In this document: positions 1,387 through 32,353 of the stretch, in pieces
Layout: every line of letters starts with the position of its first letter
How positions within the stretch are numbered: the first letter of the stretch is position 1
From: an uncultured virus (IMG/VR IMGVR_UViG_3300044642_001197)
Lineage: Duplodnaviria; Heunggongvirae; Uroviricota; Caudoviricetes
DNA: 64,000 nucleotides
IMG/VR virus record: IMGVR_UViG_3300044642_001197
Direction: 5' to 3' (one strand)
Notes under the pieces: model-generated
Told to the model about the DNA's origin: nothing
Databases searched by the model: none
The model's input: the letters and a program-made list of their open reading frames with translations, nothing else
Made by a program: the position numbers and the translations under genes

Positions 1387-1415
1387 GCTTCAACCTGTGC
1401 GATCAAAGGCTTTCC

Positions 1416-1652: not shown

Positions 1653-1822
1653 ACCTCGTAGGCCCCAATGCGCCCTTTGCCGCAGGTGGTTTGCCTACGT
1701 GGCTTCCAGGGTTGCGCGGCCCGGACCCGGTTCAAGTGGTCGGTGGCGCAGGCGCGGGAGCAGAACATGCGTTTGGGTTTTTTGGGTTCCTGGCAGGTTG
1801 GGCAATAGGTTTCTGGTTTCAT
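1649..1822 (-). CDS. small Zn-finger-like protein
   Basis: CPTC...CSRAC; ATGA-coupled on both sides. Confidence 0.55.
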   Translation of the reverse strand: MKPETYCPTCQEPKKPKRMFCSRACATDHLNRVRAAQPWKPRRQTTCGKGRIGAYEV

Positions 1823-2097
1823 GCGTCGATCTCCTCCTGACACTCGATGCAGATGCAGCCGCCCACTTTTACGGATTCACCTCGGAGAAGTTTCTGGCGG
1901 TCGCTCTCGTCAAGGCCGAACGCAGCGGCTTCAAGGGCGGTGAGTGTCTCGACATCGTCGTGGCGGATGTTGACCCCGGTGTCTGCGGGGATGCCCCCCT
2001 CCTTCAAAGGGTGGATCGTGAATTCGAGCATGGTGTCGGGGTCCGCCGGGAATTCTTTTTGACAAACGCCGCAACGGAATTGGATTTCTTCAATCAT
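1819..2097 (-). CDS. Zn-ribbon-like hypothetical protein
   Basis: CGVC...CIEC pairs. Confidence 0.55.
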   Translation of the reverse strand: MIEEIQFRCGVCQKEFPADPDTMLEFTIHPLKEGGIPADTGVNIRHDDVETLTALEAAAFGLDESDRQKLLRGESVKVGGCICIECQEEIDA

Positions 2098-2205
2098 ATG
2101 AGGTTGGGTTTTTGGGTTGCTTTTATTTGTGGAGCCACCACGCGGCAGCTCCAAGGAAGAGCGCGCAGAGAATCAGCGCGGCTTGTGTGTTGGGTTTCAT
2201 AAATG

Positions 2206-2487
2206 CTACTGGGTGTGATCCCGGGAATTGCCGTCGCCCCAGGCTCCGCCGTAGCTGCGGCCGAAGCCGTTGCCGTAGCCGGAGCCGAGGCCGTATCCTG
2301 AACCGTAGGCGAACATGGCGCCGTCGCCCCAGCCGTCGCCGCCGGAATGGCCGTAACGGCATCCGTCCCCGCGACAACGCTTGTCCCTGCAATCATCCCC
2401 AAGGATGGGGAGTTTGAAGGGGCTGCGCCAGACATACAGGTCTTCGCCCATAAGCCGGGCAAGGGCTTGTTCGTGTGTGATTTTCAT
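2206..2487 (-). CDS. leader + Gly-rich peptide family member (array A)
   Basis: MKITHEQALARLMGEDLYVW then G/Y/D/C-rich body; internal ATG of track ORF 2206..2799. Confidence 0.8.
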   Translation of the reverse strand: MKITHEQALARLMGEDLYVWRSPFKLPILGDDCRDKRCRGDGCRYGHSGGDGWGDGAMFAYGSGYGLGSGYGNGFGRSYGGAWGDGNSRDHTQ

Positions 2488-2723
2488 AATTCGCGGGACG
2501 AACCACTGCCGTCGCGGTTGCCGCAGCCGTAGCCGTAGCCGCTGTTGTAGCCGAAGCCTGCGCCGTAGCCGTCGCCGCAGCCGATGCCGTCGCCGCAGCC
2601 GGCGCCGTAGCCGCAGCCGCTGTAGCCGTCGCCGTAGCCGTCGCCGAACTCGGGCTGGGCGCTCCAGACATACAGGTCTACGCCCATAAGCCGGGCGAGG
2701 GCTTGTTCGTATGAGCGTTTCAT
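2484..2723 (-). CDS. leader + Gly-rich peptide family member (array A)
   Basis: MKRSYEQALARLMGVDLYVW...GSSREL; ATGA overlap. Confidence 0.85.
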   Translation of the reverse strand: MKRSYEQALARLMGVDLYVWSAQPEFGDGYGDGYSGCGYGAGCGDGIGCGDGYGAGFGYNSGYGYGCGNRDGSGSSREL

Positions 2724-3025
2724 AATTCGCGGGAAGAGCCGTCGCCGTCGCTATAGAAGCTATTGCCCTCGACGGTGCTAAAGTCGAAGCCCCCTCCAAG
2801 GCCGTTGCCGGAGACCAACTGATGTGGTGTCACGTATTCTCCGCAGCCGTCACCGTGTCCGTTGCCGTAACCGTAGCCGCCGTGGTCGCAATATACGCCG
2901 ACACCGTAACCATCTCCGATGGCTTCCACAGAACCCCAAGTGTCGCCCCAACCCGGCGAGACTGACCACACGTGGAGGTCTTCGCCCATGAGTCGGGCGA
3001 GGGCTTGCTCGTGTGAGGTGGTCAT
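2720..3025 (-). CDS. leader + Gly-rich peptide family member (array A)
   Basis: MTTSHEQALARLMGEDLHVW...GSSREL; ATGA overlap with the dUTPase. Confidence 0.85.
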   Translation of the reverse strand: MTTSHEQALARLMGEDLHVWSVSPGWGDTWGSVEAIGDGYGVGVYCDHGGYGYGNGHGDGCGEYVTPHQLVSGNGLGGGFDFSTVEGNSFYSDGDGSSREL

Positions 3026-3519
3026 ACGCCGGTGCTGCCGTGACCATTGGCGCCGCGAGGTGTAGGAGGGAACTTACTTACAAGTGTGTAGGCGACTTTT
3101 GGGATGGGCATCACGATGAGCTGCGCGATGTGGTCCCCGAGCTGATACACGCGCCCCGTGCGCGGCAGCTCTCGCATCGAGACTTGGATCTCATCCGAGT
3201 GCCCGGCATCCAAAATCCCCAAGCCATTGGCCAAAAGACACCGGGTGTTGCGGATACTGCTGCGGGCAGCCACAAAGCCTACATGCCCACGGGGGATCAA
3301 CACAGCCACCCCAGTGCCGAACACATGGTCCTCTGGGTCCGCTCCCGGGAGATGGATAACTCGGTCAGCATAGAGGTTAAACCCGGCATCGTCCTCGTAG
3401 GCTTGGATGGGTGGTTTTGCGGTATCGGTCAGAAGACGGAATGGGATTTTCAGGGGCTTAGGTTTGACGAGCAAACCAGTTGTGTTGGCCAGGACGGACA
3501 GAATTTTACGGATGTTCAT
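3022..3519 (-). CDS. dut: trimeric dUTPase-family protein
   Basis: Motifs AGFNL, ARSS, GILDAGH, IAQL and RGANGHGSTG in the canonical order. Confidence 0.85.
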   Translation of the reverse strand: MNIRKILSVLANTTGLLVKPKPLKIPFRLLTDTAKPPIQAYEDDAGFNLYADRVIHLPGADPEDHVFGTGVAVLIPRGHVGFVAARSSIRNTRCLLANGLGILDAGHSDEIQVSMRELPRTGRVYQLGDHIAQLIVMPIPKVAYTLVSKFPPTPRGANGHGSTGV

Positions 3520-3791
3520 TTGTAGGTAAGGTAATTGTTGAGGTCGCGGCGCATGGATTCCTCATCAGAGCTGAGAATGAGGGTGGATACTTCATCGCCG
3601 TAGCGGCTGGGGCAGACGACGCGCCTTGAGAAGATGCGTTTGCTCGACCACCAGAAACATCGGGTGACGAGGAAGCGGTAGATCTGGTGGTGAAACAAAG
3701 CGGCGCAGCTAAAGCCGAGCCCGGCGAGTAGACAGAGAGGGAGATACAAAGAGAGCGGCATGGGTGTAAGTAGGTGTAAGCGGTCCTGCAA
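3516..3791 (-). CDS. hypothetical membrane protein
   Basis: Hydrophobic N-terminal segment; ATGA overlap with dut; start uncertain. Confidence 0.45.
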   Translation of the reverse strand: MQDRLHLLTPMPLSLYLPLCLLAGLGFSCAALFHHQIYRFLVTRCFWWSSKRIFSRRVVCPSRYGDEVSTLILSSDEESMRRDLNNYLTYK

Positions 3792-3809
3792 TAAAGGGAA
3801 GCGGGTTGC

Positions 3810-4940
3810 TTATGTGTTGACGCGGATCACTTCGCCAAACGGCGCGGTCTGGCCGCCGTAGCTTACCCAGAGCACGGGCATGTGGGGATGTGTGCCGGGG
3901 AAGCTCCCGTAAAGGTCGGTGAGAACCACCACACACATCGGGTTGAGGTTGCGTTGGGTAAGCTCCTCGAAGATCGGGGCAAAGCAGGTGCCGCCGCCGC
4001 CTTTGAGTTTCAGGGCGACACGGTCGCCGGGCACAAACTCGGTGACTTCCCGCACTCGGGCGTCACACTGGATGGTCACTAGTTTGCGGGGACGCACAGC
4101 TGCCAACACCTCCTCCGCTTCGGCCAGGAACTGCTGGAGCATGGAGTCGGGGATCGAGCCGCTGGTGTCGATGGCGAAGACGAGTTCACCAGCCGCGTCG
4201 CTTTGGAGATCGGGCAGGTAGAAGTCGGGGAGATACCGGCGATCGGGCTTGAGCCAATCGTAATCGTCCGCAGCGGACTCGGTGACAAACCTGCGCAGGA
4301 GTGTGGTCCACGCAACCTTGGGCTTCACGGCGCCGGAAGCAAGCCGCTCAAGGCAGCCCGGCGCTTTGCCCATCATCTTCGCCGCCTGCGCCGCTTGGAC
4401 CACGGCGACACCCCACTCGGATGCGTTCTGTTTGCCGCTTCCTTTGTTCCCGTCGTCCTTTTTGAACTCGCCGTAGGTGGGTTTGTCGCGGGGGCCGCGT
4501 CTGTCACCTTCAATCTGCTCCGCCTTGAGCACCGTGTAGATTTCTTCCATCCCCATCCCGGCAAACCGGGGGTCACACAAGGCCCCTTCTGGAAGCGGGA
4601 AGGGGGGATTCTCAAACGTGGCGTTGTATTCGTTGAGGAACAGGTTGACGACGTGGTCGGCTGCTTGGTTGCAGAGGTAGAGGTCACGGTGGCCCACGCG
4701 CCAGGGATGCCCGAGCGCGGGGTGCATGACTTCATGGGCGAGGACACCGCGGATGAGTCCATCGGAGAGAGTCTTGGTGAACTCAGAGTTGTAGAGAAGC
4801 ACCGTGCCGTCGGTGCAGAATGTGGGTTGGCTATTGTCCTCGGAGACCTTGAGCCGCAGGAGCAGCGAGGCGAAGAAGGGGTGGGAGAGGATGATCTCAA
4901 CGATTTGTTTTTCGACGCGTTTAAACTGAGTGGAGTCCAT
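3810..4940 (-). CDS. HExxH metallopeptidase-like + VWA domain protein (DUF2201-type)
   Basis: LAHEVMH in the N-terminal part; MIDAS motif DTSGS, GGGGT and LTD in the C-terminal part. Confidence 0.85.
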   Translation of the reverse strand: MDSTQFKRVEKQIVEIILSHPFFASLLLRLKVSEDNSQPTFCTDGTVLLYNSEFTKTLSDGLIRGVLAHEVMHPALGHPWRVGHRDLYLCNQAADHVVNLFLNEYNATFENPPFPLPEGALCDPRFAGMGMEEIYTVLKAEQIEGDRRGPRDKPTYGEFKKDDGNKGSGKQNASEWGVAVVQAAQAAKMMGKAPGCLERLASGAVKPKVAWTTLLRRFVTESAADDYDWLKPDRRYLPDFYLPDLQSDAAGELVFAIDTSGSIPDSMLQQFLAEAEEVLAAVRPRKLVTIQCDARVREVTEFVPGDRVALKLKGGGGTCFAPIFEELTQRNLNPMCVVVLTDLYGSFPGTHPHMPVLWVSYGGQTAPFGEVIRVNT

Positions 4941-4969
4941 GTGAATAGAATGTGAAGAGTTGAAAAATA

Positions 4970-4996
4970 GGGGAGGGGCCGCAGGCACCCCTCCCC
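4970..4996 (-). terminator. hairpin/terminator between the AAA and VWA genes
   Basis: GGGGAGGGG...CCCCTCCCC followed by TATTTTT on the minus strand. Confidence 0.55.
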
Positions 4997-5011
4997 GTGG
5001 GCAACCACGCC

Positions 5012-6028
5012 TCAACCAACCAAAACGTCCTTGTTGCTGATGATCCACTGGATCACAGGTTTCGTGTGCTGAATCTTCGGGCAGCGCCGAACGGCCCACT
5101 GCATGACAAAGACAGCGAAGTCTTTGGGCATCCGGTTCACATACACCATGGCGCGGTCTACGTTGCCGGGCTCGATCTTCGATGCGATGCCCGCCGCGAC
5201 CGCATACATCTCGTCGGGCCGGGCGGGCACGCTGGCCCCTGCCGGATCAAGCAAGATGGCGTCGAGGCTGGGGATGCGGTCGCAGACGCCAAGGAACCCG
5301 GTGAGTTCGACTCCCGCAGCTTGGCCCACAATCCCGGCGAGCAACGCCGCCCGGATGTGGCCAGTGGCGTTGGTGGCCAGCAGCCGCGAGGCGAACTCCC
5401 AACTGCGCGGCGAGGCGAACCCAGAGTGGCCGTCCCAGACAGATGCGTCGAAGTCAGAGAGCAACGCCGGACGGTAGCGCAGGAAGGCGACGATGCGGGG
5501 ATCGACCCCGGATGCACACGCCCAGTTGGTCCAGTCATCGAGGTCGGGCACAAGCGTGATGAGACACACGCGGTTGGCTACCGCGGCGGAGAGTTTCTCC
5601 ACATGCGCCCGGTCTTGCGCGCGGTTGCCCGCCAGCACAATGAAGGTGCCTTCGGGTGCGGAGTAGTCGCCGATCTTGCCTTCGAGCAGGAGCTGCAGGC
5701 TGGCGTTCTGGGTCTGTCGCGCGGCGCAGGAGAACTCGTCGAGGAGCCACACCGTGAAGGGTTCGGTGGGGTAGTCGGCAGGGGGCGCGAAGTCCATGAC
5801 CTTGCGGCCGTTGGCTTCGGTGGTGAGGATGGGGAAGCCGCGCACGTCCACGGGGCTGGCGTAAGCGAGGCGGGTGTCACGGAACGGGCGGCCAAGCGAG
5901 TGGGCGAGTTGGTGGATGATGGTGGACTTGCCCATACCCGGGCTGCTGAGGACGAAGGGTTTGAGGTTGGCCTCGCGGCAGAAGTTGAGGGCGGCGGCGA
6001 GTTCGGTTGGTTTGAGAGTGAGTTCCAT
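5012..6028 (-). CDS. MoxR-like AAA+ ATPase
   Basis: Walker A SSPGMGKS, Walker B WLLDE, AGNR, SPRSWE; adjacent to the VWA gene. Confidence 0.85.
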   Translation of the reverse strand: MELTLKPTELAAALNFCREANLKPFVLSSPGMGKSTIIHQLAHSLGRPFRDTRLAYASPVDVRGFPILTTEANGRKVMDFAPPADYPTEPFTVWLLDEFSCAARQTQNASLQLLLEGKIGDYSAPEGTFIVLAGNRAQDRAHVEKLSAAVANRVCLITLVPDLDDWTNWACASGVDPRIVAFLRYRPALLSDFDASVWDGHSGFASPRSWEFASRLLATNATGHIRAALLAGIVGQAAGVELTGFLGVCDRIPSLDAILLDPAGASVPARPDEMYAVAAGIASKIEPGNVDRAMVYVNRMPKDFAVFVMQWAVRRCPKIQHTKPVIQWIISNKDVLVG

Positions 6029-7359: not shown

Positions 7360-7605
7360 TTAATTGCTTGGTGTCGGGGAGTAGCCGTCGCCGACGCCGT
7401 TGCCGAAGCTGAGGCCGCCGCCGTCGCCGTTGCCGTCGCTGTCGCCGGTGCCGCAGCCGTAGCCGTTGCCGTTGGTGGTGCCGTAGCCATAGCCGTTGCC
7501 GTTGGTGGTGCCGTAGCGACCGTCGCCGAACTCGGGCTGGGCGCTCCAGACATACAGGTCTTCGCCCAAAAGCCGGGCGATGGCTTGTTCGTGTGAGCTG
7601 TTCAT
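7360..7605 (-). CDS. leader + Gly-rich peptide family member (array B)
   Basis: MNSSHEQAIARLLGEDLYVW. Confidence 0.85.
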   Translation of the reverse strand: MNSSHEQAIARLLGEDLYVWSAQPEFGDGRYGTTNGNGYGYGTTNGNGYGCGTGDSDGNGDGGGLSFGNGVGDGYSPTPSN

Positions 7606-7844
7606 AGTCTGCGGGATTCGCCGTTGCCGTCGATGCCGCCACTGTAGCCGTAGCCGAAACCTTGGCCACTAGGGTAGACGTAGCCGATGCCGTAGGCGAT
7701 GCCATCGCCGGTGCGGTTGCCGTGGCCATAGTTGCAGCCATAGATGGCGCCGTTGGTGCCGCAACCCGATCCGGCATAGGCACTCCAGACCCGCAGGTCT
7801 GCGCCCATAAGCCGGGCGATGGCTTGTTCGTGTGAGGTGGTCAT
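7602..7844 (-). CDS. leader + Gly-rich peptide family member (array B)
   Basis: MTTSHEQAIARLMGADLRVW. Confidence 0.85.
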   Translation of the reverse strand: MTTSHEQAIARLMGADLRVWSAYAGSGCGTNGAIYGCNYGHGNRTGDGIAYGIGYVYPSGQGFGYGYSGGIDGNGESRRL

Positions 7845-8110
7845 GGTTTGCGGGAGCTGCCATTACCCCCCGCTCGGCCGTAGTGTCTGTGGCCGTGGTA
7901 GACGCCGTAGCCGCAGCCGTAGCCGCAGCCGTAGCCGCAGCCGATGCCGTCGCCGTAGCCGGTGCCGTCGTCGTAGGCGGTGTCGCCGCACCCTTCTCCG
8001 TCGGCGGCGTCGAATCCATTGCCGTCACCCCGCCCAGGCTTGGTGTTCCAAACATACAGGTCTACGCCCATGAGCCGGGCAATGGCTTGTTCGTGTGAGG
8101 TGGGGGTCAT
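7841..8110 (-). CDS. leader + Gly-rich peptide family member (array B)
   Basis: MTPTSHEQAIARLMGVDLYVW...GSSRKP. Confidence 0.85.
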   Translation of the reverse strand: MTPTSHEQAIARLMGVDLYVWNTKPGRGDGNGFDAADGEGCGDTAYDDGTGYGDGIGCGYGCGYGCGYGVYHGHRHYGRAGGNGSSRKP

Positions 8111-8337
8111 GATTCGCGGGACGAGCCGTTGCCGTCGCCGTTGCCGATGCCGTGGCCGTCGCCGTAGCCGCAGCCGATGCCGTCGCCGTAGCCGCAGCCG
8201 ATGCCGTCGCCGTAGCCGCAGCCGCTGTAGCCGTCGCCATAGCCGTCGCCGTCGCCGAACCGTGGATAGGAACTCCAGACCCATAGGTCTACGCCCATGA
8301 GCCGGGCGATGGCTTGTTCGTGTGAGGTAGTGTTCAT
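8107..8337 (-). CDS. leader + Gly-rich peptide family member (array B)
   Basis: MNTTSHEQAIARLMGVDLWVW...GSSRES. Confidence 0.85.
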   Translation of the reverse strand: MNTTSHEQAIARLMGVDLWVWSSYPRFGDGDGYGDGYSGCGYGDGIGCGYGDGIGCGYGDGHGIGNGDGNGSSRES

Positions 8338-8585
8338 AATAGGGGTAGTGAATAGCCGTCGTGTTCTCCGCCGAACCCAGGGTAAGGCCCATCGCCACGG
8401 CCTATGCCCGACGCTTCGCCATAGCCGCAACCCAACAACACTGGGGGGGTGTCGCCGCAGGATATGACGCTGCGGCCGATCCCGTTACCGAAACCAACCC
8501 CATCCCCGAACTCGGGCTGGGCGCTCCAGACATACAGGTCTTCGCCCATGAGCCGGGCGAGGGCTTGTTCGTGTGAGGTGTTCAT
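8334..8585 (-). CDS. leader + Gly-rich peptide family member (array B)
   Basis: MNTSHEQALARLMGEDLYVW. Confidence 0.85.
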   Translation of the reverse strand: MNTSHEQALARLMGEDLYVWSAQPEFGDGVGFGNGIGRSVISCGDTPPVLLGCGYGEASGIGRGDGPYPGFGGEHDGYSLPLL

Positions 8586-8881
8586 AGGTCGTTGGATTCG
8601 CCATCGCCGTAGACGTAGCCGAAGCCGCAGCCTTCGCCGTGGCCGAGGCCGTTGCCGTAGCATCGACCGCAACCCAAGCCGCTGCTGCGTTCGTCGTTGA
8701 AGTCGGCGGCGCCGAATCCGTTGCCGGTATTGTAAGCGGAACCAAAGAAGCCGTGGCCGTGGCCGATGCCGTCGTAAGCGTGGCCTTCTTTGCCGTCCCC
8801 TGATCCTGCGCAAACACTCCAGACATACAGGTCTTCGCCCATGAGCCGGGCGATGGCTTGTTCGTGTGAGGTGGTGGTCAT
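8582..8881 (-). CDS. leader + Gly-rich peptide family member (array B)
   Basis: MTTTSHEQAIARLMGEDLYVW. Confidence 0.85.
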   Translation of the reverse strand: MTTTSHEQAIARLMGEDLYVWSVCAGSGDGKEGHAYDGIGHGHGFFGSAYNTGNGFGAADFNDERSSGLGCGRCYGNGLGHGEGCGFGYVYGDGESNDL

Positions 8882-9174
8882 TGTGTTAGGGATTTGCGGG
8901 AGCTGCCATTACCCCCCGCGCGACCGTAGAATAGGCCGCGGCCAGCGCCGAAGCCCTTGCCACCGTCGAGGCTGTAGCCGGCGCCGTCGCCGTAGCCGCT
9001 GCCGTTGCCGTCGTCGTAACTGACGAAACCGAACCCGTCTCCGTCGCCGTAGAGGCCGACGTAGCCATCGCCGGTGCCGTCGGCGTCGCCATCGCAGGAG
9101 CCGTTGTCCGAGTCGGCGCACCAGACCCATAGGTCTTCGCCCATGAGCCGGGCGATGGCTTGTTCTGTGTTCAT
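8878..9174 (-). CDS. leader + Gly-rich peptide family member (array B)
   Basis: MNTEQAIARLMGEDLWVW. Confidence 0.85.
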   Translation of the reverse strand: MNTEQAIARLMGEDLWVWCADSDNGSCDGDADGTGDGYVGLYGDGDGFGFVSYDDGNGSGYGDGAGYSLDGGKGFGAGRGLFYGRAGGNGSSRKSLTQ

Positions 9175-9410
9175 GAGGTGAATGATTCGCCGCCCCCACG
9201 GTGGCAGCCGTAACCGGAGCCGTAGCCGAGGTCTCGGTAGCCGTAGCCGTAGCCGATGCCAACGCCATCGCCCGCGTCAGAAAAGTCGGGGTCGTTGCCG
9301 CCGTCTCCGTGTCTGTCTCCGTATCCGGGGCCGTCCCCCGATCCGGGACGAGGGTTCCAAACATACAGGTCTACGCCCATGAGCCGGGCGACGGCTTGTT
9401 CTGTGTTCAT
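9171..9410 (-). CDS. leader + Gly-rich peptide family member (array B)
   Basis: MNTEQAVARLMGVDLYVW. Confidence 0.85.
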   Translation of the reverse strand: MNTEQAVARLMGVDLYVWNPRPGSGDGPGYGDRHGDGGNDPDFSDAGDGVGIGYGYGYRDLGYGSGYGCHRGGGESFTS

Positions 9411-9643
9411 GGTTTGCGAGAGGCGTCGCCCCCATCGGTGTGCCCGTAGGAGTAGCCGTCGCCGCAACCGTCGCCGCGATAGATCCCCTTGGGGCCGTAG
9501 TCCCCGACGCCCGAGCCGTCCTCGGGGTAATCCCCATACGGAGATCCTTCCCCAAGATCGTCGCTGACCAAGCGGGCAACTTGGTCCGTCCACACATGGA
9601 GGTCTGCGCCCATGAGCTGGGCGATGGCCTGTTCTGTGTTCAT
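9407..9643 (-). CDS. leader + Gly-rich peptide family member (array B)
   Basis: MNTEQAIAQLMGADLHVW. Confidence 0.85.
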   Translation of the reverse strand: MNTEQAIAQLMGADLHVWTDQVARLVSDDLGEGSPYGDYPEDGSGVGDYGPKGIYRGDGCGDGYSYGHTDGGDASRKP

Positions 9644-9942
9644 GGTTTGTTTGATCCTCCGTCACCGTGGCCGTCGCCGTAGTTGTCGATCCCCCAACTT
9701 CCATCGCCGTAGCTGCGAAACCCGTCATCGGGAAAAAAGCCGTCGCCACGACTGCGGTAGTTGCCGTCCCCTGTGCTGTCGCCCTCTTCATCGTCGCCGG
9801 GAGGCGTTGGGCCAAATCCGCAGCCGTCGCCGGTGCCGTAACCATACAAACCGTCGCCGATATTCAGGCCATAACTCGAGCAGGCGTTCCAGACATACAG
9901 GTCTGCGCCCATGAGCTGGGCGATTGTTTGTTGTGAGGTCAT
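9640..9942 (-). CDS. leader + Gly-rich peptide family member (array B)
   Basis: MTSQQTIAQLMGADLYVW. Confidence 0.8.
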   Translation of the reverse strand: MTSQQTIAQLMGADLYVWNACSSYGLNIGDGLYGYGTGDGCGFGPTPPGDDEEGDSTGDGNYRSRGDGFFPDDGFRSYGDGSWGIDNYGDGHGDGGSNKP

Positions 9943-10100
9943 GGTTTTCGCAGGAGTGCTCCGCGCATCGCGCTCCAAAGACTCCGGGTGAACCGGGCCA
10001 ACACCCCCGGGGGCTTGGGTGTTTGAATCCGCCGGACTAACTCCAGCATGGAATGGGGTGGGATACATGGGCGATCGCCTTCGTAACAACGGGGTTTCAT
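9939..10100 (-). CDS. small hypothetical protein (53 aa, not in ORF track)
   Basis: MKPRCYEG...LLRKP; ATGA overlaps on both sides. Confidence 0.5.
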   Translation of the reverse strand: MKPRCYEGDRPCIPPHSMLELVRRIQTPKPPGVLARFTRSLWSAMRGALLRKP

Positions 10101-10372
10101 AGGCCGAGGAATTGGTTGATGGCTTTGTAGGTGGGTTTGATGCCGAGTGCCCGGCAGGCATTGATGACGCCTTGGCCATCTTTGTTTCCAATGCCGCGCT
10201 GGAACGCTGCGACCATGCGCTCGGCAAGCTGCAACGGTGTTACCCTGCGGGAGACGTGCTCGTATCCCGGGTCCGTGGCAAAGAGGTGCGTGTAGGCTTG
10301 TTCCAGGGCTGCTTGGAACTGGTCACAGGGTTGCAGTGTTGCGGATGTGTTCGGCTCGGGCGCGGGCTTCAT
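10097..10372 (-). CDS. hypothetical protein
   Basis: C-terminal part of the track ORF looks protein-like; start uncertain. Confidence 0.5.
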   Translation of the reverse strand: MKPAPEPNTSATLQPCDQFQAALEQAYTHLFATDPGYEHVSRRVTPLQLAERMVAAFQRGIGNKDGQGVINACRALGIKPTYKAINQFLGL

Positions 10373-10715
10373 CGTGTATGGTTTTGTAGGTTTCGGGTGG
10401 GAGGTGGGCGCGGGCAGCTTCAACGAAGCATTGCTGGAAGGGCCGGTTGAGGGCGTCCCGCAGGCGGCTGCGTTGTCTGCTGAGTCCGCCAAGCCGGGCG
10501 TCGATGCGTGCGATGGCGTCGGCGTCTTCGCGGATGAGTTCGACCAACTCGCCCCATTCCCCGGGGGAGCACCCCGTGTCGCGGAGTGTCTCCTGCCGGG
10601 CTTTGAGTTCTTGAAGATCGGTGACGCAAGCGGCGCGTTGACGCTTGAGGTCATCGCGTTCGGCTTCGATCTCGGCGACCTGCGCTTCGAGGACAGAATC
10701 GTCGACGGGGTTCAC
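10323..10715 (-). CDS. coiled-coil hypothetical protein
   Basis: Heptad-like helical sequence; overlaps the JAB stop codon. Confidence 0.6.
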   Translation of the reverse strand: MNPVDDSVLEAQVAEIEAERDDLKRQRAACVTDLQELKARQETLRDTGCSPGEWGELVELIREDADAIARIDARLGGLSRQRSRLRDALNRPFQQCFVEAARAHLPPETYKTIHDEARARAEHIRNTATL

Positions 10716-11737
10716 TGGAGGCCCTCCAAGAAATCGCGCTCCTCCTGATCGGAGGCGGCGCGTTCTTCCAGCTCCGCCATTTCCTCCAGCGCCTCAATGG
10801 CTTCTTCCACGGGGATCCTGTGGTGGATCAGAACATCGAGGATGTCTTCCTGCGCCCCGGCAAGTTCTTTGAGGGCGTCCGCCATGGCCTGATACCCGAT
10901 GCCATACATGCGGAATTGTTCTTCGAGTTCGACGAGGTATTCGCCGCGGGTATCCTCGGCGGGCTCCTGTTCGAGCGGGACATTCCACACGCCGGGGGCC
11001 TGTTCGATGAGGCGGGTATACGGGCTCTGTTTGAGGGGGGTGTATGCGGGGAGGGTGTCGGCAAGCTTGGGCCGGGTCGCTTCAACCCGGACAACATTTT
11101 CCTTCCACCATGAGGGGAACTCGCCGTGCACGGGGGTCGTCAGGCAATGGGCGATGGCTTGGTCCCAGAGGTGTTCGGGCAACACGGCGAGGACTTCCTG
11201 CGGCACCACGTCGAACCAATCCGAGAGAACGGCTTGGTGCATGTGGGTGCGGAAGGATGTGCGCGCGTGGATGGAGTAACGGGCGGACTCCAGATCGCCG
11301 ATGGTGATGTGCAACCCTTCCTTGGTGCGTTCGTCGGCGGAGTCGGTGCCGGACTGGAAGGCGGAAGCGCGGCAATGGTGGTGCACCGTGCCGAACTGTT
11401 CCCAGCCAGCGCCGAGTCGCTGGAAGGTGGGCACAGTCTGCGGATGGTCCGGGAGCAGAGTGATAGTCATGCCATTAAAACCTTTCTGCGGGAGGACCAT
11501 CGCCGCCCAGCGATGGGTGTCGTAGTGGTAGAAGAGGTTAACCACGGTCTCGGACTTGGTGGTCTCTTGGCTCCATTCAAGGAAGGAGAGGACTTCGCGC
11601 CAGAGCGCCAGCGGGATCTTGCCACCGGCCCAGCGATTGGTGGGGGTGCGTTCTTCGAGGCGGAGTTCTTCAACCCCGGTCCAAGGGCCTGCGGTGATTT
11701 GACGGTAGGTTTTGTCTTTGAATGCGATGAGTTCCAT
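10712..11737 (-). CDS. JAB/MPN-family metallo-isopeptidase (prokaryotic Ubl system)
   Basis: Upstream Glu (KSETVV), then GTVHHHCRASAFQSGTD = HxH...S..D, then GLHITIG. Confidence 0.8.
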   Translation of the reverse strand: MELIAFKDKTYRQITAGPWTGVEELRLEERTPTNRWAGGKIPLALWREVLSFLEWSQETTKSETVVNLFYHYDTHRWAAMVLPQKGFNGMTITLLPDHPQTVPTFQRLGAGWEQFGTVHHHCRASAFQSGTDSADERTKEGLHITIGDLESARYSIHARTSFRTHMHQAVLSDWFDVVPQEVLAVLPEHLWDQAIAHCLTTPVHGEFPSWWKENVVRVEATRPKLADTLPAYTPLKQSPYTRLIEQAPGVWNVPLEQEPAEDTRGEYLVELEEQFRMYGIGYQAMADALKELAGAQEDILDVLIHHRIPVEEAIEALEEMAELEERAASDQEERDFLEGLQ

Positions 11738-11755
11738 AAGGGTGGGTGTGTTGGT

Positions 11756-12361
11756 TTAGTCTTCTTGTTCTTCGCGTTCACCGGCAGGGGTGAACTCGGG
11801 GTTGGTTTCGATGAGGCTGCGGAGTGCGGCCTTGAATGTGTTGTAAGACCCGGACACGCTGTGGTCTTCCCAGTGATGGCCGTCGCATTCTTCGTCGCCG
11901 TAGTCTATGTCGCCGTAGTCGATGTCGTTCGGGTATTCACTCTCTGCGGCCTCCTCCAAACGAGCCCGCACCTTGTCCACAAATTCGTCGAACGAATCGG
12001 ATGCGTCGGCGCATTCGAGAAGCTCGTCGTCTGAAAGCTCGATGTTCATGGTGGCGTTTATACTCCGCGTGTAGTTGGTGGAGCCCCGCTCTTCCCCTAA
12101 AAACTCCACATCCCAAGCGAAGCTGGAACGGAAGGGTGAGGCGCATGAGAGCTGCACCTGGGGCGGGGTAGGGGCGACCGATAGAATCCATTGGGCCACG
12201 GATTCGTAGGCGGTCAGTTCATCGGGGACACACTGGCCGAGGCGAGCCCGGATGTGGGCGCGGGTTTCCTCGGCGGTGGGTGCGTATTTGACGAGGGCGG
12301 CGAGGGTTGCGCCGAGGGTTGAGCGTAAGAGCCCAAGGTCGAGTGGAGTTTCTGTGTCCAT
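11756..12361 (-). CDS. acidic hypothetical protein in the Ubl module
   Basis: From MDTETPLDL; D/E-rich C-terminal half. Confidence 0.6.
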   Translation of the reverse strand: MDTETPLDLGLLRSTLGATLAALVKYAPTAEETRAHIRARLGQCVPDELTAYESVAQWILSVAPTPPQVQLSCASPFRSSFAWDVEFLGEERGSTNYTRSINATMNIELSDDELLECADASDSFDEFVDKVRARLEEAAESEYPNDIDYGDIDYGDEECDGHHWEDHSVSGSYNTFKAALRSLIETNPEFTPAGEREEQED

Positions 12362-12366
12362 AGGTT

Positions 12367-13008
12367 TTAGCGATCTGCGAATCGGATGGTGGTGAACTTG
12401 GCGAAGGAGACTTTGTGGTGCACGGGCCAGAACTCGCGCGGGTAGTGGTCTCGTTCCTTGGTGTGATACCAGTAGAGGTGGAGCATCTGGCCGCTGGCCC
12501 AGTCGTTGGCCAGGACAAGCTGCGGGTGGGTTTGCGACGCTGCACCCGTGCAACTCTGTGGCCGGGTGGGATCGTCGGAGGTGTCTGTGAGGATGTCGGG
12601 GTAGAACACCCGGGGATCGTTGAGTGTGCCGCGCCACTCGGGGTCATACCAATAGGCTTCGGCGTCCGTGTATTCGTTGGCACCGAACACGGCGGAGCAC
12701 CGGAAGTTGTCGCAGAGTTCGAGCGTTGCCTTGCGGGCTGCGTGGTTGTCGACCGCGCAGAAGAGGATGTCCCGGCGCCGAGGTTCAAGGCTACCGGGTG
12801 AGAGGTAACTGGTCACAGGGTTGCAGCCGTAGCGGGCGGCGAGAGCCTCGGACTTGAAGCGTCCGATGTCGGACTCTTCAAAGAGTTGGCGATCCAAGTT
12901 CTTGTGTTCGAGTTTGTCGCCGTCGACGAGGGTGAGTTCTTTCTTGAGGCGGACGAGCTTCGGCACCAACCAAGAGCCGACGCCGCCGCAGCCGATTACA
13001 TAGAGCAT
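12367..13008 (-). CDS. ThiF/E1-like adenylyltransferase
   Basis: IGCGGVGS, DGD..E.KNL.RQ, K (FKSEAL), AVDN, candidate catalytic Cys in QSCTG, PQL..AN. Confidence 0.9.
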   Translation of the reverse strand: MLYVIGCGGVGSWLVPKLVRLKKELTLVDGDKLEHKNLDRQLFEESDIGRFKSEALAARYGCNPVTSYLSPGSLEPRRRDILFCAVDNHAARKATLELCDNFRCSAVFGANEYTDAEAYWYDPEWRGTLNDPRVFYPDILTDTSDDPTRPQSCTGAASQTHPQLVLANDWASGQMLHLYWYHTKERDHYPREFWPVHHKVSFAKFTTIRFADR

Positions 13009-13319
13009 AGGTTTTTGTGTAGGGAGTAGGGTTCGGGTTTACGCAGAGCCGCAGTGATGTGAGGGGCGAGTTTCTGAAAGGTTGCGCTGAGTTCGTTGAT
13101 TAACTCGGGCGGGATCTCGACGCGGTGTGGGGAACTCGTGAAGTATGCGTAGATGGCTGCGACGGTCGGCAGCGTGTGCCCACAGTCCCCCCGCGCATAC
13201 GCCGGGGATGCTGCGTCCTGCGCGAGCTTGGCGGCAGAGAGCCGCAGGTTTTCCCTAGGGTCCGGAGGAAGGGGGGCAGTGAATTGGGTTTTGAGGTAGG
13301 TAAAAAGCTCTGTGCTCAT
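12996..13319 (-). CDS. hypothetical protein between E2 and E1
   Basis: ATGA-coupled to E2; overlaps the E1 start. Confidence 0.6.
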   Translation of the reverse strand: MSTELFTYLKTQFTAPLPPDPRENLRLSAAKLAQDAASPAYARGDCGHTLPTVAAIYAYFTSSPHRVEIPPELINELSATFQKLAPHITAALRKPEPYSLHKNLCSM

Positions 13320-14026
13320 AGGATGAAGTTTTCGAGGTAGGGATGGCTAACCATCGTGCAGGTGCCCTTGATGTGGTCGAGCGAGGGGGTGAAGGCCGGG
13401 GCTTCCGGGTCGATGGGGAACCGGAACAGGCGTTCGGCGGCTCCGGCTTGGTCGGTCAAGAGATCCGCATTCCAAGGTGACTCGTGGAAGTGTTCCAGTG
13501 CGCGGGTGAAGGCGGAGAGCAACGTGGGCTCTTCGATCGTGATGCTGCCCATGCACACCCGGGTGTCGTTGTAGACGTTGGGCAGGGGGAGTCGCCAGAA
13601 CCCGGGCGTGTCGGCCAATGTGGCGAAGAGGAAAGTGGATTCGACCTTGTGCCGGGTGCCACCCTCAGGGGGTGCAGACACCGTGCCGAAGATGAGGGTC
13701 GCGCACTCGGGCACGGCCCATGTCCGGGTCATTGTGAGGGTGTCGTTGCGGGACACGAAGGCGGGAACCAGTGTGTCCTCCTGCGCCTTGAATTGTGTGC
13801 GCAGGTTGAGGAAGGGGAGCCGGGTTGCGGTGAACTGTTTACCGTGTCGCGTGGTGACGGACACGCCGTAAGACGTGTCCCCGAGGTGGATCTTCGTAAG
13901 GTTCTTGACCGTGACCCGAGCGTCGGCGGCGACGATGCGCCCGAGGTCGGGGAGTTGGCCGAGGAAAGCGGCGTTGAGTTTGTAAACGCCCTCTGGAGAA
14001 ATGATGTAGTTGTCTTGGATATTCAT
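13316..14026 (-). CDS. prokaryotic E2-like protein (Prok-E2_D / PRTRC-B-like)
   Basis: RLPLPNVYNDTRVCMG (PNV..d..vC.G signature) and F..S.WN.DL. Confidence 0.7.
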   Translation of the reverse strand: MNIQDNYIISPEGVYKLNAAFLGQLPDLGRIVAADARVTVKNLTKIHLGDTSYGVSVTTRHGKQFTATRLPFLNLRTQFKAQEDTLVPAFVSRNDTLTMTRTWAVPECATLIFGTVSAPPEGGTRHKVESTFLFATLADTPGFWRLPLPNVYNDTRVCMGSITIEEPTLLSAFTRALEHFHESPWNADLLTDQAGAAERLFRFPIDPEAPAFTPSLDHIKGTCTMVSHPYLENFIL

Positions 14027-14032
14027 GAGTGC

Positions 14033-14072
14033 AAAGGAAAGGGGCCGCGCCGGTATGGATCGACGCGGCCCC
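14033..14072 (-). terminator. terminator/attenuator between the Ubl and E2 genes
   Basis: 9-bp stem GGGGCCGCG/CGCGGCCCC followed by TTTCCTTT on the minus strand. Confidence 0.6.
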
Positions 14073-14088
14073 GGGTTACTGTGGTGGG

Positions 14089-14637
14089 TTATGCCTTGGT
14101 GCAGGCGACATCGTGCACGGATACAACGTCGCTGTCCCTGAGCGGGATGTTGTTACCCTGTGGCACACCGGCCACGAAGCCTTGGACGTTGGTCCCATAG
14201 CCAAGGGCACCCTTGACCTGCGGATCGGCGAGCAAGGCGCCGATGGTGGTGCCGACGGGGGCAACACGGGAGACCGTGTTGCCAATCCCATACTTCACCA
14301 ATACGGTGAGGGTGGCGGGGGTTGCGAGCTCGGGGGTTGGCGCTGGTGCAGGGGCGGGGGCCGGGGCCGCAGGAGGGGCGACAGGCTCGGGGGTTGGTGC
14401 AGGGGCCGGAGCAGGGGCGGGCTCGGGGGCAACAGGCTCGGGGGCGGGCTCGATGTAGAACGCGAGGTCATAAGTCGCCCCGTCCACCACACTAGTGTAG
14501 ATCCTCCACACCGTGGAGGACGGCAGACCGAGCACCGACAGGAGAGGGGCCGCAAAGTCCCTAAGGGAAACCTCGAGGGTGGTGGGTGCGGGGGCGGGGA
14601 GGGTGAGGGTAACTTGGTTGTATTTGATGGTGATCAT
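14089..14637 (-). CDS. ubiquitin-like (beta-grasp) protein with Pro/Ala linker
   Basis: C-terminal ~72-aa domain with a beta-beta-alpha-beta pattern ending ...LRDSDVVSVHDVACTKA; lies upstream of E2/E1/JAB. Confidence 0.65.
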   Translation of the reverse strand: MITIKYNQVTLTLPAPAPTTLEVSLRDFAAPLLSVLGLPSSTVWRIYTSVVDGATYDLAFYIEPAPEPVAPEPAPAPAPAPTPEPVAPPAAPAPAPAPAPTPELATPATLTVLVKYGIGNTVSRVAPVGTTIGALLADPQVKGALGYGTNVQGFVAGVPQGNNIPLRDSDVVSVHDVACTKA

Positions 14638-14771
14638 GGCTGTTTTTGGTTGGGCTCGGTTTTGTGGTTGCGACCAAGGCATTGCCCGGATGCCGAGGCC
14701 GTGGTGAGGAGGCGTCTTTGCCCCCACGTCAGGGGTTCACCGATGAGGCAAACCCCTGAGGTGTGGGCAAC

Positions 14772-15308
14772 TTACTGCAACCCGGCAAACATGGGCCACT
14801 TGTCTAAGGTGACATCCATGAGGTGATTGAGTGCGTGATACGGGGCGATCACGTTGCCGGTCTTATCGAGCATGGTCTCAGCGGTGGGGCCTTCCAAGGC
14901 GATCTGTCCCAGGCCGCGCGTGGTGCCCCATACGCGGATGTTTCGGGCGTGGTGGATAACCACCATGTTGTCGGCGATTGATACGAGCCCGATGTAGACG
15001 AAGCCGTTGTCGAGGAGTGCGATTTTGATGCTAGGTGCCATATGTTTTAGTAGTTGTTTAGTAGTTTTGTTGCTTGTGTCTGAGGGAGAGTGTATGGGCG
15101 TGCAAGGAAGGCCGGTGCCTTTCCAGTGGTCGTAGTGTGCGGGGTAGCCGTCGCCGTCGGCGTTGCATTGGTAGTAATACCCATCACCCCAACCTTCCCC
15201 GCTGCGAAAGCCGCAATAGCAGCCGCCGCCCAGCTCAGGCTTGGCACTCCAGACGTGGAGGGCTTCACCCATGAGTCGGGCGATGGCTTGTTCGTGTGAG
15301 GTGGTCAT
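14772..15308 (-). CDS. leader + Gly-rich peptide in frame with a small beta-barrel (DUF6948/Sm-like) domain
   Basis: MTTSHEQAIARLMGEALHVW...; second ATG at 15041 starts MAPSIKIALLDNGFVYIG...RVWGTTRGLGQIALEGP. Confidence 0.7.
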   Translation of the reverse strand: MTTSHEQAIARLMGEALHVWSAKPELGGGCYCGFRSGEGWGDGYYYQCNADGDGYPAHYDHWKGTGLPCTPIHSPSDTSNKTTKQLLKHMAPSIKIALLDNGFVYIGLVSIADNMVVIHHARNIRVWGTTRGLGQIALEGPTAETMLDKTGNVIAPYHALNHLMDVTLDKWPMFAGLQ

Positions 15309-15559
15309 AGTCCGTGGGATGCGCCGTTGCCGCCGCTGTAGCCCGAGTTGATTCCGCAGCCGCAGCCGTAGCCGTTGCCGTTGCCTGTGCCTGTGCCGCA
15401 GCCGTGGCGGTGGCTGGAGCCGTATCCGGTGCCATAGCCGGGGCCGTGGCCGTTGCCACGATTGGTCCCCTTGGGGCCGTTACCCCGGCCCGGCTTGGCA
15501 TTCCAGACGTGGAAGTCCTCGCCCATGAGCCGGGCGAGGGCTTGTTCGTGTGAGGTCAT
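15305..15559 (-). CDS. leader + Gly-rich peptide family member (array C)
   Basis: MTSHEQALARLMGEDFHVW. Confidence 0.85.
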   Translation of the reverse strand: MTSHEQALARLMGEDFHVWNAKPGRGNGPKGTNRGNGHGPGYGTGYGSSHRHGCGTGTGNGNGYGCGCGINSGYSGGNGASHGL

Positions 15560-15789
15560 ATCCCGTGGGAGTAGCCGTTGCCGTAGATGAAGATGAAGCT
15601 GCGGTCGAAGCCGATGCCTTTGCCGTTGCTGTAGCCGCAGCCGATGCCGTCGCCGTGGCCGATGCTGCTGTAGCCGTCGCCATAGCCGGCGCCCGTGGGG
15701 TAGCCGTGGCCGTTACCTTGTTCTGGGTGGGCATTCCAAACTTTGAGGTCTTCGCCCATGAGTCGGGCAATGGCTTGTTCTGTGTTCAT
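15556..15789 (-). CDS. leader + Gly-rich peptide family member (array C)
   Basis: MNTEQAIARLMGEDLKVW. Confidence 0.85.
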   Translation of the reverse strand: MNTEQAIARLMGEDLKVWNAHPEQGNGHGYPTGAGYGDGYSSIGHGDGIGCGYSNGKGIGFDRSFIFIYGNGYSHGI

Positions 15790-15864
15790 TTTGTGTGTGG
15801 CGGGGAGGCAAAGCGCCGCCAAGTTCGGCGGCGGAACCTAGCGGCGCTTCACCCTAGCGCAAGG

Positions 15865-16089
15865 TTAAAGCAACCCGACGCTAACTTTTTTTGAGCCCCG
15901 CATCACCGTGACCACGGCAAACTTGGCCCGTTTCTTGGGCTTCTGGAATGACCAGTCACGGTCAAAGAACCGGTCGGCCTTGGCGATTGACGCCGCCCCG
16001 GCGACTGCCCTCAAGTTAGAGAGCTTGGTTTGGGGGCCGACGGGGGACAGGGGGCGAGGTTTGCGGGCGGTGGTGCGTTCGAAGAGCAT
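15865..16089 (-). CDS. small basic hypothetical protein
   Basis: 74-aa ORF preceded by an A/C-rich leader like other early genes. Confidence 0.45.
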   Translation of the reverse strand: MLFERTTARKPRPLSPVGPQTKLSNLRAVAGAASIAKADRFFDRDWSFQKPKKRAKFAVVTVMRGSKKVSVGLL

Positions 16090-16581
16090 GGCGATGGTTG
16101 GTTTAGTGGTTGCTTGGTTGCAGTGTTATGCTTCAACCCGGGCAAGTTCGGGAGTGAGGAGCGGGGCTTCTTGGTCCAGCTCCGAAAGGAAGCGGTAAAG
16201 CTCCATGCGCAGAGCTTGGCGCTCCCGGCGATTGGCTTTGGCTTTAGTGGTCTTGGTTGCTTTTGTGGTCTTGGTTGCGTTGGTCATAGGAAAAGGCGGT
16301 AGATGAGGGCCGCGTGGAGGGCCCAAAGGGTCACGGGCATGACCCGGTTGAGAATTTCAAGGGGGCGAGGCGAGAATTCTATTTGACTCGGCACCCTGTA
16401 ACAGGGCAGCGTGTGGCCAGCCGAAAGGCACTGACGACACGCTGATTTAACAGCAAAGGCGCAAGGGAAACCTTGCGCCTTCTTTTTTGCATTCATGGGG
16501 TGGTGCTATGTTAGCGGGTCCATGGCCAGCGATCTGGCTTCGGGGTGGGTTTGTATTGAGTCATAGGGTTGCTTGGTTGGT

Positions 16582-16688
16582 TTGTTACAGGGGCGCTTGG
16601 TGTTCGGGTTACAGGGGTGCCTTGTCACAGGGTTACAGGGGTGCCTTGTCACAGGGTTACAGGGGTGCCTTGTCACAGGGTTACAGGG
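16582..16688. repeat. 24-bp tandem repeat, about 4.5 copies
   Basis: GGGTTACAGGGGTGCCTTGTCACA exact at 16606, 16630 and 16654; degenerate copy at 16582, partial copy at 16678. Confidence 0.9.
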
Positions 16689-16690
16689 TA

Positions 16691-16719
16691 TGGACAAGCC
16701 CCGTCCTTACTGCTACAGT
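16691..16719 (+). promoter_or_regulatory. sigma70-like promoter, probably giving a leaderless mRNA
   Basis: TGGACA-N17-TACAGT with ATG at 16726. Confidence 0.45.
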
Positions 16720-16725
16720 TTGCCC

Positions 16726-17196
16726 ATGGGTGGACGAAAAGGAACCTCCGGTTGGACAAAGCCTCTCAACGTCGACAAGGAAGCCATTCGGGTTTTCTTG
16801 GCGGAGGGAGGATCGAGTGTCGAAGCGGCCGCAAAATTTGGCGTAGCCGCACCGACAATCCGCGTTTGGTCTTCAAAATATGGTTGGGCCAAAGAGCGGC
16901 AGGCCATTGCAAGGATTCGCAAAGAAGCCGCCAAAGTGGCCGCCACAGAGAAGATTACTCAGTTGGCGGAATCCTGGGCGGAGAAGGGCGAGCGTCACAG
17001 GGAAACCGTGTTTTCCATCGCGGAAAAGGCTTTACAGAATGCCAAGTTACAGGGTCCCAAGACTTGGCGAGATGCCGATATCGTCGACCGGATGGCGCGA
17101 AGGGCCGCCGGTTTGGACAATGGCGAAGGGTCCTCGCCCTTCATCAACATCGGCATCCTGGGACAGACGGACGCGAAGCCCTTCTCAGAAGGGTAG
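16726..17196 (+). CDS. HTH protein, candidate terminase small subunit
   Basis: SVEAAAKFGVAAPTIRVWSSKYGW HTH, then a helical region and a short C-terminal strand (FINIGIL). Confidence 0.55.
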   Translation: MGGRKGTSGWTKPLNVDKEAIRVFLAEGGSSVEAAAKFGVAAPTIRVWSSKYGWAKERQAIARIRKEAAKVAATEKITQLAESWAEKGERHRETVFSIAEKALQNAKLQGPKTWRDADIVDRMARRAAGLDNGEGSSPFINIGILGQTDAKPFSEG

Positions 17197-32185: not shown

Positions 32186-32353
32186 GGCGGCTTTTGTGGG
32201 TTCTGTAAGGACAGATAAGGACACTTTTTTCCCTTAAAACAAGCAAAAGGTTGCATAAGTTTATGCGGGTTGAAGCGAAACCGGTATGCAAAATCAGCCC
32301 GCAAGTGGCTTATTCACAGGGATTTCCAGAGAATTGCGTGTGTACGCAAAAAA

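Follow-up and report, generated by a model that had tools for sequence, protein, structure and literature searches.

The 64,000-nucleotide (nt) stretch of DNA analysed here (the window) derives from an uncultured virus of the class Caudoviricetes (IMG/VR record IMGVR_UViG_3300044642_001197) and encodes, between positions 10712 and 14637 of the minus strand, six consecutive genes that probably form a self-contained ubiquitin-like (Ubl) protein-conjugation cassette of a temperate phage. The cassette would be a distant, rearranged sister of the PRTRC (ParB-Related, ThiF-Related Cassette; NCBIfam TIGR03734-03742) and class 6d cassettes of plasmids, integrative and conjugative elements and phages. 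The observations behind this reading are the gene content and gene order, the conserved catalytic residues, a beta-grasp fold, a hairpin within the cassette and the recurrence of the set in other mobile elements. A first-pass annotation, made from the sequence by a model, had proposed a phage-carried Ubl, E2, E1 and JAB set of PRTRC type, a proposal that the present analysis supports.

All six open reading frames (ORFs) of that proposal are present on the minus strand, exactly or nearly where it had placed them. In transcription order they encode the Ubl (14089-14637; 182 amino acids, aa), delimited by its ORF and homologues; an E2-like protein (13316-14026; 236 aa), recognised by its ORF, its active-site motif and a sub-threshold match to Prok-E2_D; X, a small protein of unknown function (12996-13319; 107 aa) defined by its ORF and position; a minimal, ThiF-type E1 with a single adenylation domain (12367-13008; 213 aa), identified by Pfam ThiF; Y, an acidic protein (pI 4.16) likewise of unknown function (11756-12361; 201 aa), defined by its ORF and alignment; and a JAB/JAMM metallopeptidase (10712-11737; 341 aa), identified by its active-site residues. 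The start of the Ubl gene at 14637 is fixed, because homologues begin at the same Met. The junctions are tight, with X overlapping the E2 stop by 4 nt and the E1 start by 13 nt, E1 and Y lying 5 nt apart and Y and JAB 18 nt apart, which suggests translational coupling of the cassette genes; the 62 nt between Ubl and E2 are the only sizeable gap. The catalytic motifs that had been named in advance (PNV...VCMG in E2, GCGGVG and a candidate Cys in E1, and HxH...S..D in JAB) were all found and are all conserved.

The Ubl begins with a domain of about 63 aa and uncertain fold, which a Pro/Ala-rich linker joins to a C-terminal beta-grasp domain (residues ~106-182) ending in ...VHDVACTKA. Confidence in the AlphaFold2 model is poor overall (predicted local distance difference test, pLDDT, 63) and stands at 72-81 for residues 109-176. 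Structural comparison of this modelled C-terminal domain with VIA-align, in which the best 50 matches were listed, aligned it with ubiquitin, SUMO, ISG15 and MoaD at Z 8.3-9.9, the root-mean-square deviation being 1.9-3.5 Å over 65-76 residues in 49 of the 50 and 6.7 Å over 81 residues in the other; MoaD occupies the seventh and 49th places in the list, and 66 chains reached Z>=8. A beta-grasp fold, which the first-pass annotation had expected of this product, is therefore predicted for its C-terminal domain. The structural alignment of residues 106-182 extends to the last residue of the ubiquitin, SUMO and ISG15 chains, and the K-A end of the protein, part of a terminal [T/K]-K-A that is conserved in the family, stands where ubiquitin ends. 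Most relatives are single-domain Ubls of 73-92 aa ending in ...E-T-A-A-N-T-K-A, and three relatives carry 1-6 extra residues beyond the K-A or K-G, the L001 type having six. The clade of the window's protein ends in ...V-H-D-x-A-C-[T/K]-K-A and carries the extra N-terminal domain, which is absent from other clades; only four homologues of similar length were found.

Between the stop of the Ubl gene and the start of the E2 gene lies a GC-rich stem-loop (14041..14072, minus strand), detected by terminator scan and folding, with 12 bp, of which 11 are G-C pairs, followed by a weak U-tract. Its fold has an energy of -28.9 kcal/mol and a z of -3.65. A hairpin of unrelated sequence stands at the same place in six related loci (L001, L005, L007, L009, L013 and L015), giving a stem-loop 3' of the Ubl gene in seven of the eight intergenic stretches that were folded, window included; the stretch in the exception, L011, is only 28 nt long. 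The element may be a partial terminator or attenuator, or an mRNA stabiliser, in either case keeping the Ubl above the level of the enzymes.

The E2-like protein carries the motif LPLPN-x7-C-x-G, which has the form LPxN-x7-C-x-G across the family. A word-based search returned five relatives, and a profile built from them returned, out of 1.84 billion representatives from 50% clustering, 957 proteins at E<=1e-3, 198 of them at E<=1e-30. In an alignment of 49 sequences, comprising the window's protein and 48 others chosen by hand along the 150 matches listed, the only invariant columns are W103, P147, N150, C158 and G160. N150 and C158 are the Asn and Cys of the PNV...VCMG stretch highlighted by the first-pass annotation, and the N-to-Cys spacing of eight residues is that of canonical E2s. 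Pfam Prok-E2_D matches the window's protein at residues 143-187 below threshold (16.9 bits, cut-off 25) and 10 of the 49 family members at E<=0.01, the best of them at 6.6e-5. The protein is assigned as an E2 because of the invariant N-x7-C-x-G motif, these family-D matches and the operon in which it lies. The closest relative of the cassette, P0001, was found in metagenomes and has an E2 90% identical to that of the window, and uncharacterised proteins of uncultured Caudovirales in BFVD resemble the E2 model (best E 6.9e-9, template-modelling score, TM, 0.61). The single protein used as a query in IMG/VR returned no relative, tblastn of the E2-like protein and JAB against 50,697 phage records gave no match, and sequence searches of the PDB with the E2 profiles and with the JAB profile returned nothing meaningful.

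The E1 is the only cassette protein above a curated Pfam or NCBIfam threshold, with 60.6 bits to ThiF (PF00899; cut-off 28.1). The GCGGVG motif occupies residues 6-11, and among 12 E1 sequences (the window and 11 relatives) the glycine loop G-x-G-x-x-G, D29/D31, N37, R40, Q41, K52 and D87/N88 are invariant, residues whose roles in adenylation are known from ThiF and MoeB. The candidate catalytic Cys153, within a G/S-C-T-G motif, is present in 11 of the 12. The best NCBIfam matches include ThiS adenylyltransferases, and residues 3-60 match the CBASS Cap2 'E1-E2' models of PADLOC-DB v2.0.0 (best 33.8 bits), a 2023 library that may or may not include Bil models and in which the other five cassette proteins found no match. 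Distant ThiF genes occur in 51 phage records, with identities of at most 28% in three records that cover 86% of the E1 and up to ~37% where only the N-terminal 41-47% is covered.

In JAB, residues E63, H119, H121, S129 and D132 are invariant in all eight sequences compared, leaving the pattern E...H-x-H-x7-S-x2-D intact; in the JAMM consensus, the E, H-x-H, S and D residues make up the whole metal site. The match to Pfam Prok-JAB lies below threshold (15.5 bits, cut-off 25), and the protein has both an N-terminal extension, with invariant F52, W55 and W77, and a long C-terminal extension.

Y is a conserved member of the cassette, while X is a member by position. BLASTP with Y matched the ORF at the same position in five related loci (L001, L006, L009, L015 and L018; E 2e-10 to 2e-6), and an alignment of 11 sequences shows G93 and Y97 invariant together with an acidic D-Y-D-Y stretch. 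A small ORF occupies the position of X in 12 other loci, with 17-23% identity to the window's X and M1 as the only invariant residue. Neither X nor Y matched any Pfam, NCBIfam, PHROG or PADLOC model, and Y had no usable match in the ESM Atlas, where all structure matches had TM<0.5. To label X and Y as E3 or adaptor proteins, as the first-pass annotation had done, is a guess.

Pattern scans based on the E2 alignment recovered 19 related loci, on four IMG/VR contigs (45-70 kb) and 15 contigs of GTDB genomes. By BLASTP, Ubl, E2, E1 and JAB occur in this order in seven of them (L001, L002, L003, L006, L007, L009 and L016), and E2, E1 and JAB were found in L004. A further seven are cut inside the cassette by the end of the contig (L005, L008, L010, L011, L012, L013 and L015). 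The recurrence of this six-gene order in unrelated contigs makes the gene set more than a chance assembly. The remaining four loci look partial or degenerate: E2 is followed by unrelated opposite-strand genes in L014, L017 has E2, X and a JAB fragment with no E1, JAB is shortened in L018, and L019 shows a 66-residue E2 match within a primase-like ORF, which suggests that the cassette decays in some genomes. Verrucomicrobiota, or a member of that phylum, is named in the titles of 12 of the 15 GTDB contigs; the query alignment for these contigs covered one subclade, and the count describes that subclade and not the host of the window's phage. Neighbours of the cassette in these relatives include a PD-(D/E)XK nuclease, a WGR protein with an ATP-dependent ligase, a beta-clamp-like protein and helicases. 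In two loci of Verrucomicrobiota (L007, 11262-15722; L017, 4120-9234) genes for a WGR-domain ATP-dependent ligase, DUF3150 and DUF1257 come after the cassette or what remains of it; a beta-clamp-like protein is also present in L007 and a Cdc48-like AAA ATPase in L017.

Class 6d was described as operons that combine Ubl, JAB, E1-like and E2-like genes with an alpha-helical protein, the E2 lacking the His of the HPN motif and the JAB carrying an N-terminal extension (Iyer, Burroughs and Aravind 2006, PMC1779556, in the portion of the text available). PRTRC corresponds to this class, because the proteins of a canonical PRTRC on a Paraburkholderia plasmid, which has the order ParB-E-C-F-B-A-ThiF, match Prok_Ub, alpha-hel2, Prok-E2_D (171 bits) and DUF2016+Prok-JAB, with 85.5 bits for protein C. 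The window's cassette resembles PRTRC in having stand-alone Ubl, E2-like, ThiF-type E1 and JAB genes with fast-evolving helpers on mobile elements, and resembles class 6d in the separation of these four genes and in an E2 motif, L-P-N, without the HPN His. The PRTRC models are also the only named cassette models matched by E1, JAB and E2 in the window or its relatives. PRTRC_ThiF gives 44.4 bits with the E1 (cut-off 144.75) and PRTRC_A gives 19.7 bits with JAB (cut-off 101.8). Profile alignment with hhalign placed the N...C.G motif of the E2 on that of PRTRC_B (E 0.0024, probability 12%) and the JAMM stretch of JAB on that of PRTRC_A (E 6.5e-4, probability 27%). PRTRC protein C ends in ...A-G-A-K-G-G-D-A or in ...G-T-K-G plus a tail, which matches the x-K-[A/G] end of the Ubl here.

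The cassette also differs from PRTRC. At E<=0.1 the E2 had no match among NCBIfam models, PRTRC protein B (TIGR03737) included; the Ubl matched neither Prok_Ub nor TIGR03738, nine of nine relatives were likewise unmatched in NCBIfam, and hhalign of the Ubl with PRTRC_C aligned nothing (E 0.21). Among 48 proteins of relatives, PRTRC models matched E1 in six of six, JAB in four of seven and E2 in one of 14, all far below cut-off (19.4 bits against 131.45 for the single E2 that matched PRTRC_B), and PRTRC or NCBIfam models matched none of nine Ubl, six X and six Y proteins. The order Ubl-E2-X-E1-Y-JAB departs from ParB-E-C-F-B-A-ThiF, X and Y have no counterpart in PRTRC, and the extra N-terminal domain of the Ubl in the window's clade is a further difference. 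ParB, PRTRC_E, alpha-hel2 (PRTRC_F) and DUF2016 found no match among the eight proteins of 10097-14637 in Pfam and NCBIfam, nor did ParB, PRTRC_E and alpha-hel2 among 31 long ORFs across the rest of the window in Pfam. No His after the E2 Cys is invariant in the 49 sequences, whereas the class 6d table describes an absolutely conserved one (PMC1779556, in the portion available). Because the models score far below cut-off, the gene order differs and ParB, protein E, protein F and DUF2016 are absent, the cassette appears, on sequence comparison, to be a distant, rearranged sister of PRTRC/6d and not a member of PRTRC.

A phage-borne kit of PRTRC type is as such already on record and is not new. 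Ralstonia phage YO105_4 (ON170183.1, labelled L024 in this analysis) carries at 1365-5759 a complete canonical PRTRC, comprising PRTRC_E, Prok_Ub, alpha-hel2, Prok-E2_D, DUF2016+JAB and ThiF, that is unannotated in the record, and Vibrio phage D69 (OZ195729.1) carries an E2_D-like protein (20.5 bits), a JAB (35.5 bits) and a ThiF-like gene. In the available text of a 2026 paper, B. gladioli prophage AB2 has a PRTRC, termed a partitioning cassette (PMC13366799), and a 2026 preprint, in its accessible portion, identifies PRTRC protein B of a P. vulgatus prophage, located beside a diversity-generating retroelement, as a hotspot of recurrent mutation (10.64898/2026.10.01.756045). These four phage sets are canonical or near-canonical, with the order E2-JAB-E1, unlike the set in the window.

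Among bacterial Ubl conjugation systems, only CBASS type II, Bil and Bub have, to our knowledge, proved functional, and each of them is read as defence. These systems share with the cassette the bacterial combination of E1, E2, peptidase and Ubl (10.1101/2023.09.26.559546; PMC11601596; both in the parts available), and JAB enzymes process or remove the Ubl in such pathways according to the same available parts. Bil operons run Ubl-E2-DUB-E1 (DUB, deubiquitinase), so that Ubl and E2 come first as they do here, and act through Cys thioesters, but in the accessible text their E1 (type I and type II/6C) is multidomain, with inactive and active adenylation domains (IAD and AAD) and a CYS domain (10.1101/2023.09.26.559546), whereas that of the window is a single domain of 213 aa. 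Bub (6E) is described, in the part of the source at hand, as using Ser/Tyr oxyesters and a serine protease (PMC11601596), whereas the E2 of the window has an invariant Cys and is accompanied by JAB. CBASS Cap2 combines E1 and E2 in one protein and acts on a CD-NTase, none of which is present here. All three systems fit worse than PRTRC/6d.

In the pathway proposed for the cassette, each chemical step and the direction of transfer are put forward conditionally. The Ubl would be transcribed in excess, with the hairpin attenuating read-through into the enzyme genes. The single-domain E1, presumably a homodimer like ThiF and MoeB, would adenylate the free C-terminal Ala182 of the Ubl, and its Cys153 may hold the Ubl before this is handed to Cys158 of the E2, in which Asn150, eight residues upstream, would stand in for the HPN Asn of UBC proteins. 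The E2 would then transfer the Ubl to an amino group of a target protein. JAB would reverse the tag, and would also trim the precursor in those relatives with 1-6 residues after Lys-Ala/Gly, while Y, and perhaps X, would be cassette-specific helpers. A DNA replication or recombination protein of the element or of the host is a possible, tentative candidate for the target, guessed because the cassette adjoins such genes in the window and in its relatives.

Several points weigh against this reading of the cassette. The AlphaFold2 model of the E2-like protein, built from the 49-sequence alignment, is confident (pLDDT 92.2), and Foldseek with it against the PDB returned nothing at E<=0.001. In the VIA-align comparison E2 enzymes account for 18 of the 50 matches listed, with 112-134 residues aligned over query residues ~40-225, at Z 4.3-5.1, a grey zone in which scores, being below 8, may reflect a common arrangement, and the top match is an actin-capping protein at Z 5.3. 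The UBC fold that the first-pass annotation had asked to be checked in the 13316-14026 product is thus weakly favoured by the model, which is suggestive only and does not establish the fold; the E2 assignment rests more on the active-site motif, which is invariant and aligns with the PRTRC protein B motif. The C-terminus of the Ubl is Lys-Ala and not Gly-Gly, and its N-terminal domain, modelled at pLDDT 50-59 and with no usable match in the ESM Atlas, is unexplained. The sequence of X is barely conserved. The suggested target is a case of guilt by association, and clamp-docking-like C-terminal motifs, sought with a loose pattern, occur in two of 108 cassette protein tails and in none of the window's proteins. 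In a literature search with subscription journals outside its coverage, neither an experimental test of PRTRC/6d nor a description of this cassette family was found, and the function of PRTRC is called unstudied in the available text of one recent paper (PMC13366799).

Three other explanations were weighed against a conjugation cassette allied to PRTRC/6d. The cassette might serve a prophage as a Bil-like anti-phage defence, conjugating Ubl to a structural protein of an invading phage while JAB keeps the reaction in check. The window encodes an integrase, so the phage can be a prophage; prophages carry defence systems, and the Bil order likewise starts with Ubl and E2. This reading is nevertheless unlikely, the PADLOC matches being confined to the nucleotide-binding stretch of the E1 (residues 3-60) and to CBASS Cap2 models, the E1 being a 213-aa single domain unlike the multidomain Bil E1, and the cassette lying within a long co-directional phage operon, with relatives that adjoin replication and recombination genes and not known defence genes. 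Still further down the scale, and very improbable, is a sulfur carrier of ThiS/MoaD type, in which the E1 would adenylate the Ubl, whose thiocarboxylate would then supply a cofactor, or the peptides rich in Cys and Gly described below, with sulfur. The ThiS adenylyltransferases among the best NCBIfam matches of the E1 and MoaD among the structural matches of the Ubl speak for such a carrier. Against it stand the E2-like protein with an invariant Cys and the JAB with an intact site that the cassette always includes; neither the window nor the related loci show a rhodanese, cysteine desulfurase or cofactor-synthesis gene beside the cassette, and the C-terminus is Lys-Ala, whereas ThiS and MoaD end in Gly-Gly.

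The third explanation joins the cassette in a single pathway with 16 leader peptides, which would be substrates of the Ubl or exchangeable specificity adaptors, as the first-pass annotation had supposed. Its count of 16 is confirmed, as 3 + 10 + 3 genes on the minus strand in arrays A (2206-3025), B (7360-9942) and C (14772-15789). Array C lies directly upstream, ending 134 nt before the Ubl start, and array B begins ~0.77 kb past the JAB stop, separated from JAB by one or two small ORFs at 10323-10715 and about 10097-10372; both arrays are treated here as neighbours of the cassette. The peptides share the leader ...H-E-Q-A-I-A-R-L-M-G-E-D-L-Y-V-W, followed by cores rich in Gly, Tyr, Asp and Cys. 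They are 76-101 aa long, with one of 178 aa, and successive genes overlap by ~20-30 nt; in the last gene of array C (14772-15308, minus strand) the Gly-rich core runs on with no stop into a C-terminal domain of ~100 aa that is unique among the peptides.

Such a peptide pathway would be consistent with the position of the arrays on the same strand and in one apparent direction of transcription, with the extra N-terminal domain of the Ubl being found in the window's clade only, and with the existence in metagenomes of close relatives of both a peptide (P0157) and the cassette (P0001). A search of the 19 cassette loci with a hidden Markov model of the leader found no leader-type peptide in any of them (best E 0.19-0.49), and none of the other genes of the window recurs beside the cassette there, the neighbours of the cassette being quite unlike those in the window. 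Six of the 16 peptides contain no lysine and three more contain one. A degenerate DNA pattern for the leader, which would miss P0157, whose leader reads V-N-L, gave no match in IMG/VR viral contigs and one in metagenome contigs, within an unrelated frame. Among 5.8 billion protein clusters the only relatives of the peptides are P0157, from a 23.9-kb contig and 94% identical across the 78% of the 40-residue query region that aligned, and P0158. These results go against the peptides as substrates or adaptors and against the co-occurrence of cassette and leader that the first-pass annotation had proposed to check: the two are independently distributed within the 19 loci, the contigs of the closest relatives being too short to judge or outside that sample. 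A link between cassette and peptides is therefore unsupported, their relation being adjacency in this one phage, and the explanation is highly doubtful. If it were true, it would be the first link of ubiquitin-like conjugation to a multi-copy viral peptide library, and contact with the shared leader would fall to the additional N-terminal domain that the Ubl has in this clade.

Judged by the Pfam and PHROG matches of its long ORFs, the window looks like a temperate phage, or a prophage, from an uncultured lineage. Among the matches are a large terminase interrupted by an intein (Hint/homing endonuclease; 32488-35277), a tyrosine integrase (31007-32224) and a family-A DNA polymerase of 1284 aa (21766-25620), in which an insert at residues ~406-637, matching PhoH-like and ribonucleotide-reductase PHROGs, may be a second intein. 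Further matches include a DUF5906 primase/helicase-like protein, a helicase fused to a DUF2800/PD-(D/E)XK nuclease, a resolvase, a collagen-like tail fibre and, weakly, a tape measure protein, and no tRNA genes were found in the window. Positions 10000-16000 had no megablast match in the 50,697 phage records, and tblastn with the helicase-nuclease found only distant matches (28-30% identity) there. Between arrays A and B (3810-6028, minus strand), and on the same strand as the cassette, are genes for a MoxR-like AAA ATPase (phrog_1297) and for a DUF2201 metallopeptidase/VWA protein (phrog_1314), neither of which has an equivalent next to the cassette in other loci. At the 5' end of a plus-strand gene for a DNA-binding protein (16573-17196) there is a perfect 24-nt tandem repeat of 3.5 copies (16606-16688); it stands between the cassette operon and the genes for replication and may be an iteron- or operator-like site.

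PRTRC/6d cassettes have been known from sequence since 2006, and no test of their function was found in the literature searched. The conjugation cassette of the window belongs to a compact, intact-looking and widespread family, with 957 E2-like representatives, that is present in phages and other mobile elements and escapes the Pfam and NCBIfam models at cut-off, the generic ThiF match of the E1 excepted. The family offers a convenient test case, in which the E1 is very small and the Ubl of most members needs no processing, and in which Lys181 before the terminal Ala means that a modified lysine would keep just one Ala after trypsin digestion. If the target proves to be a replication protein or a host protein, the cassette would show the use to which mobile elements put such kits.

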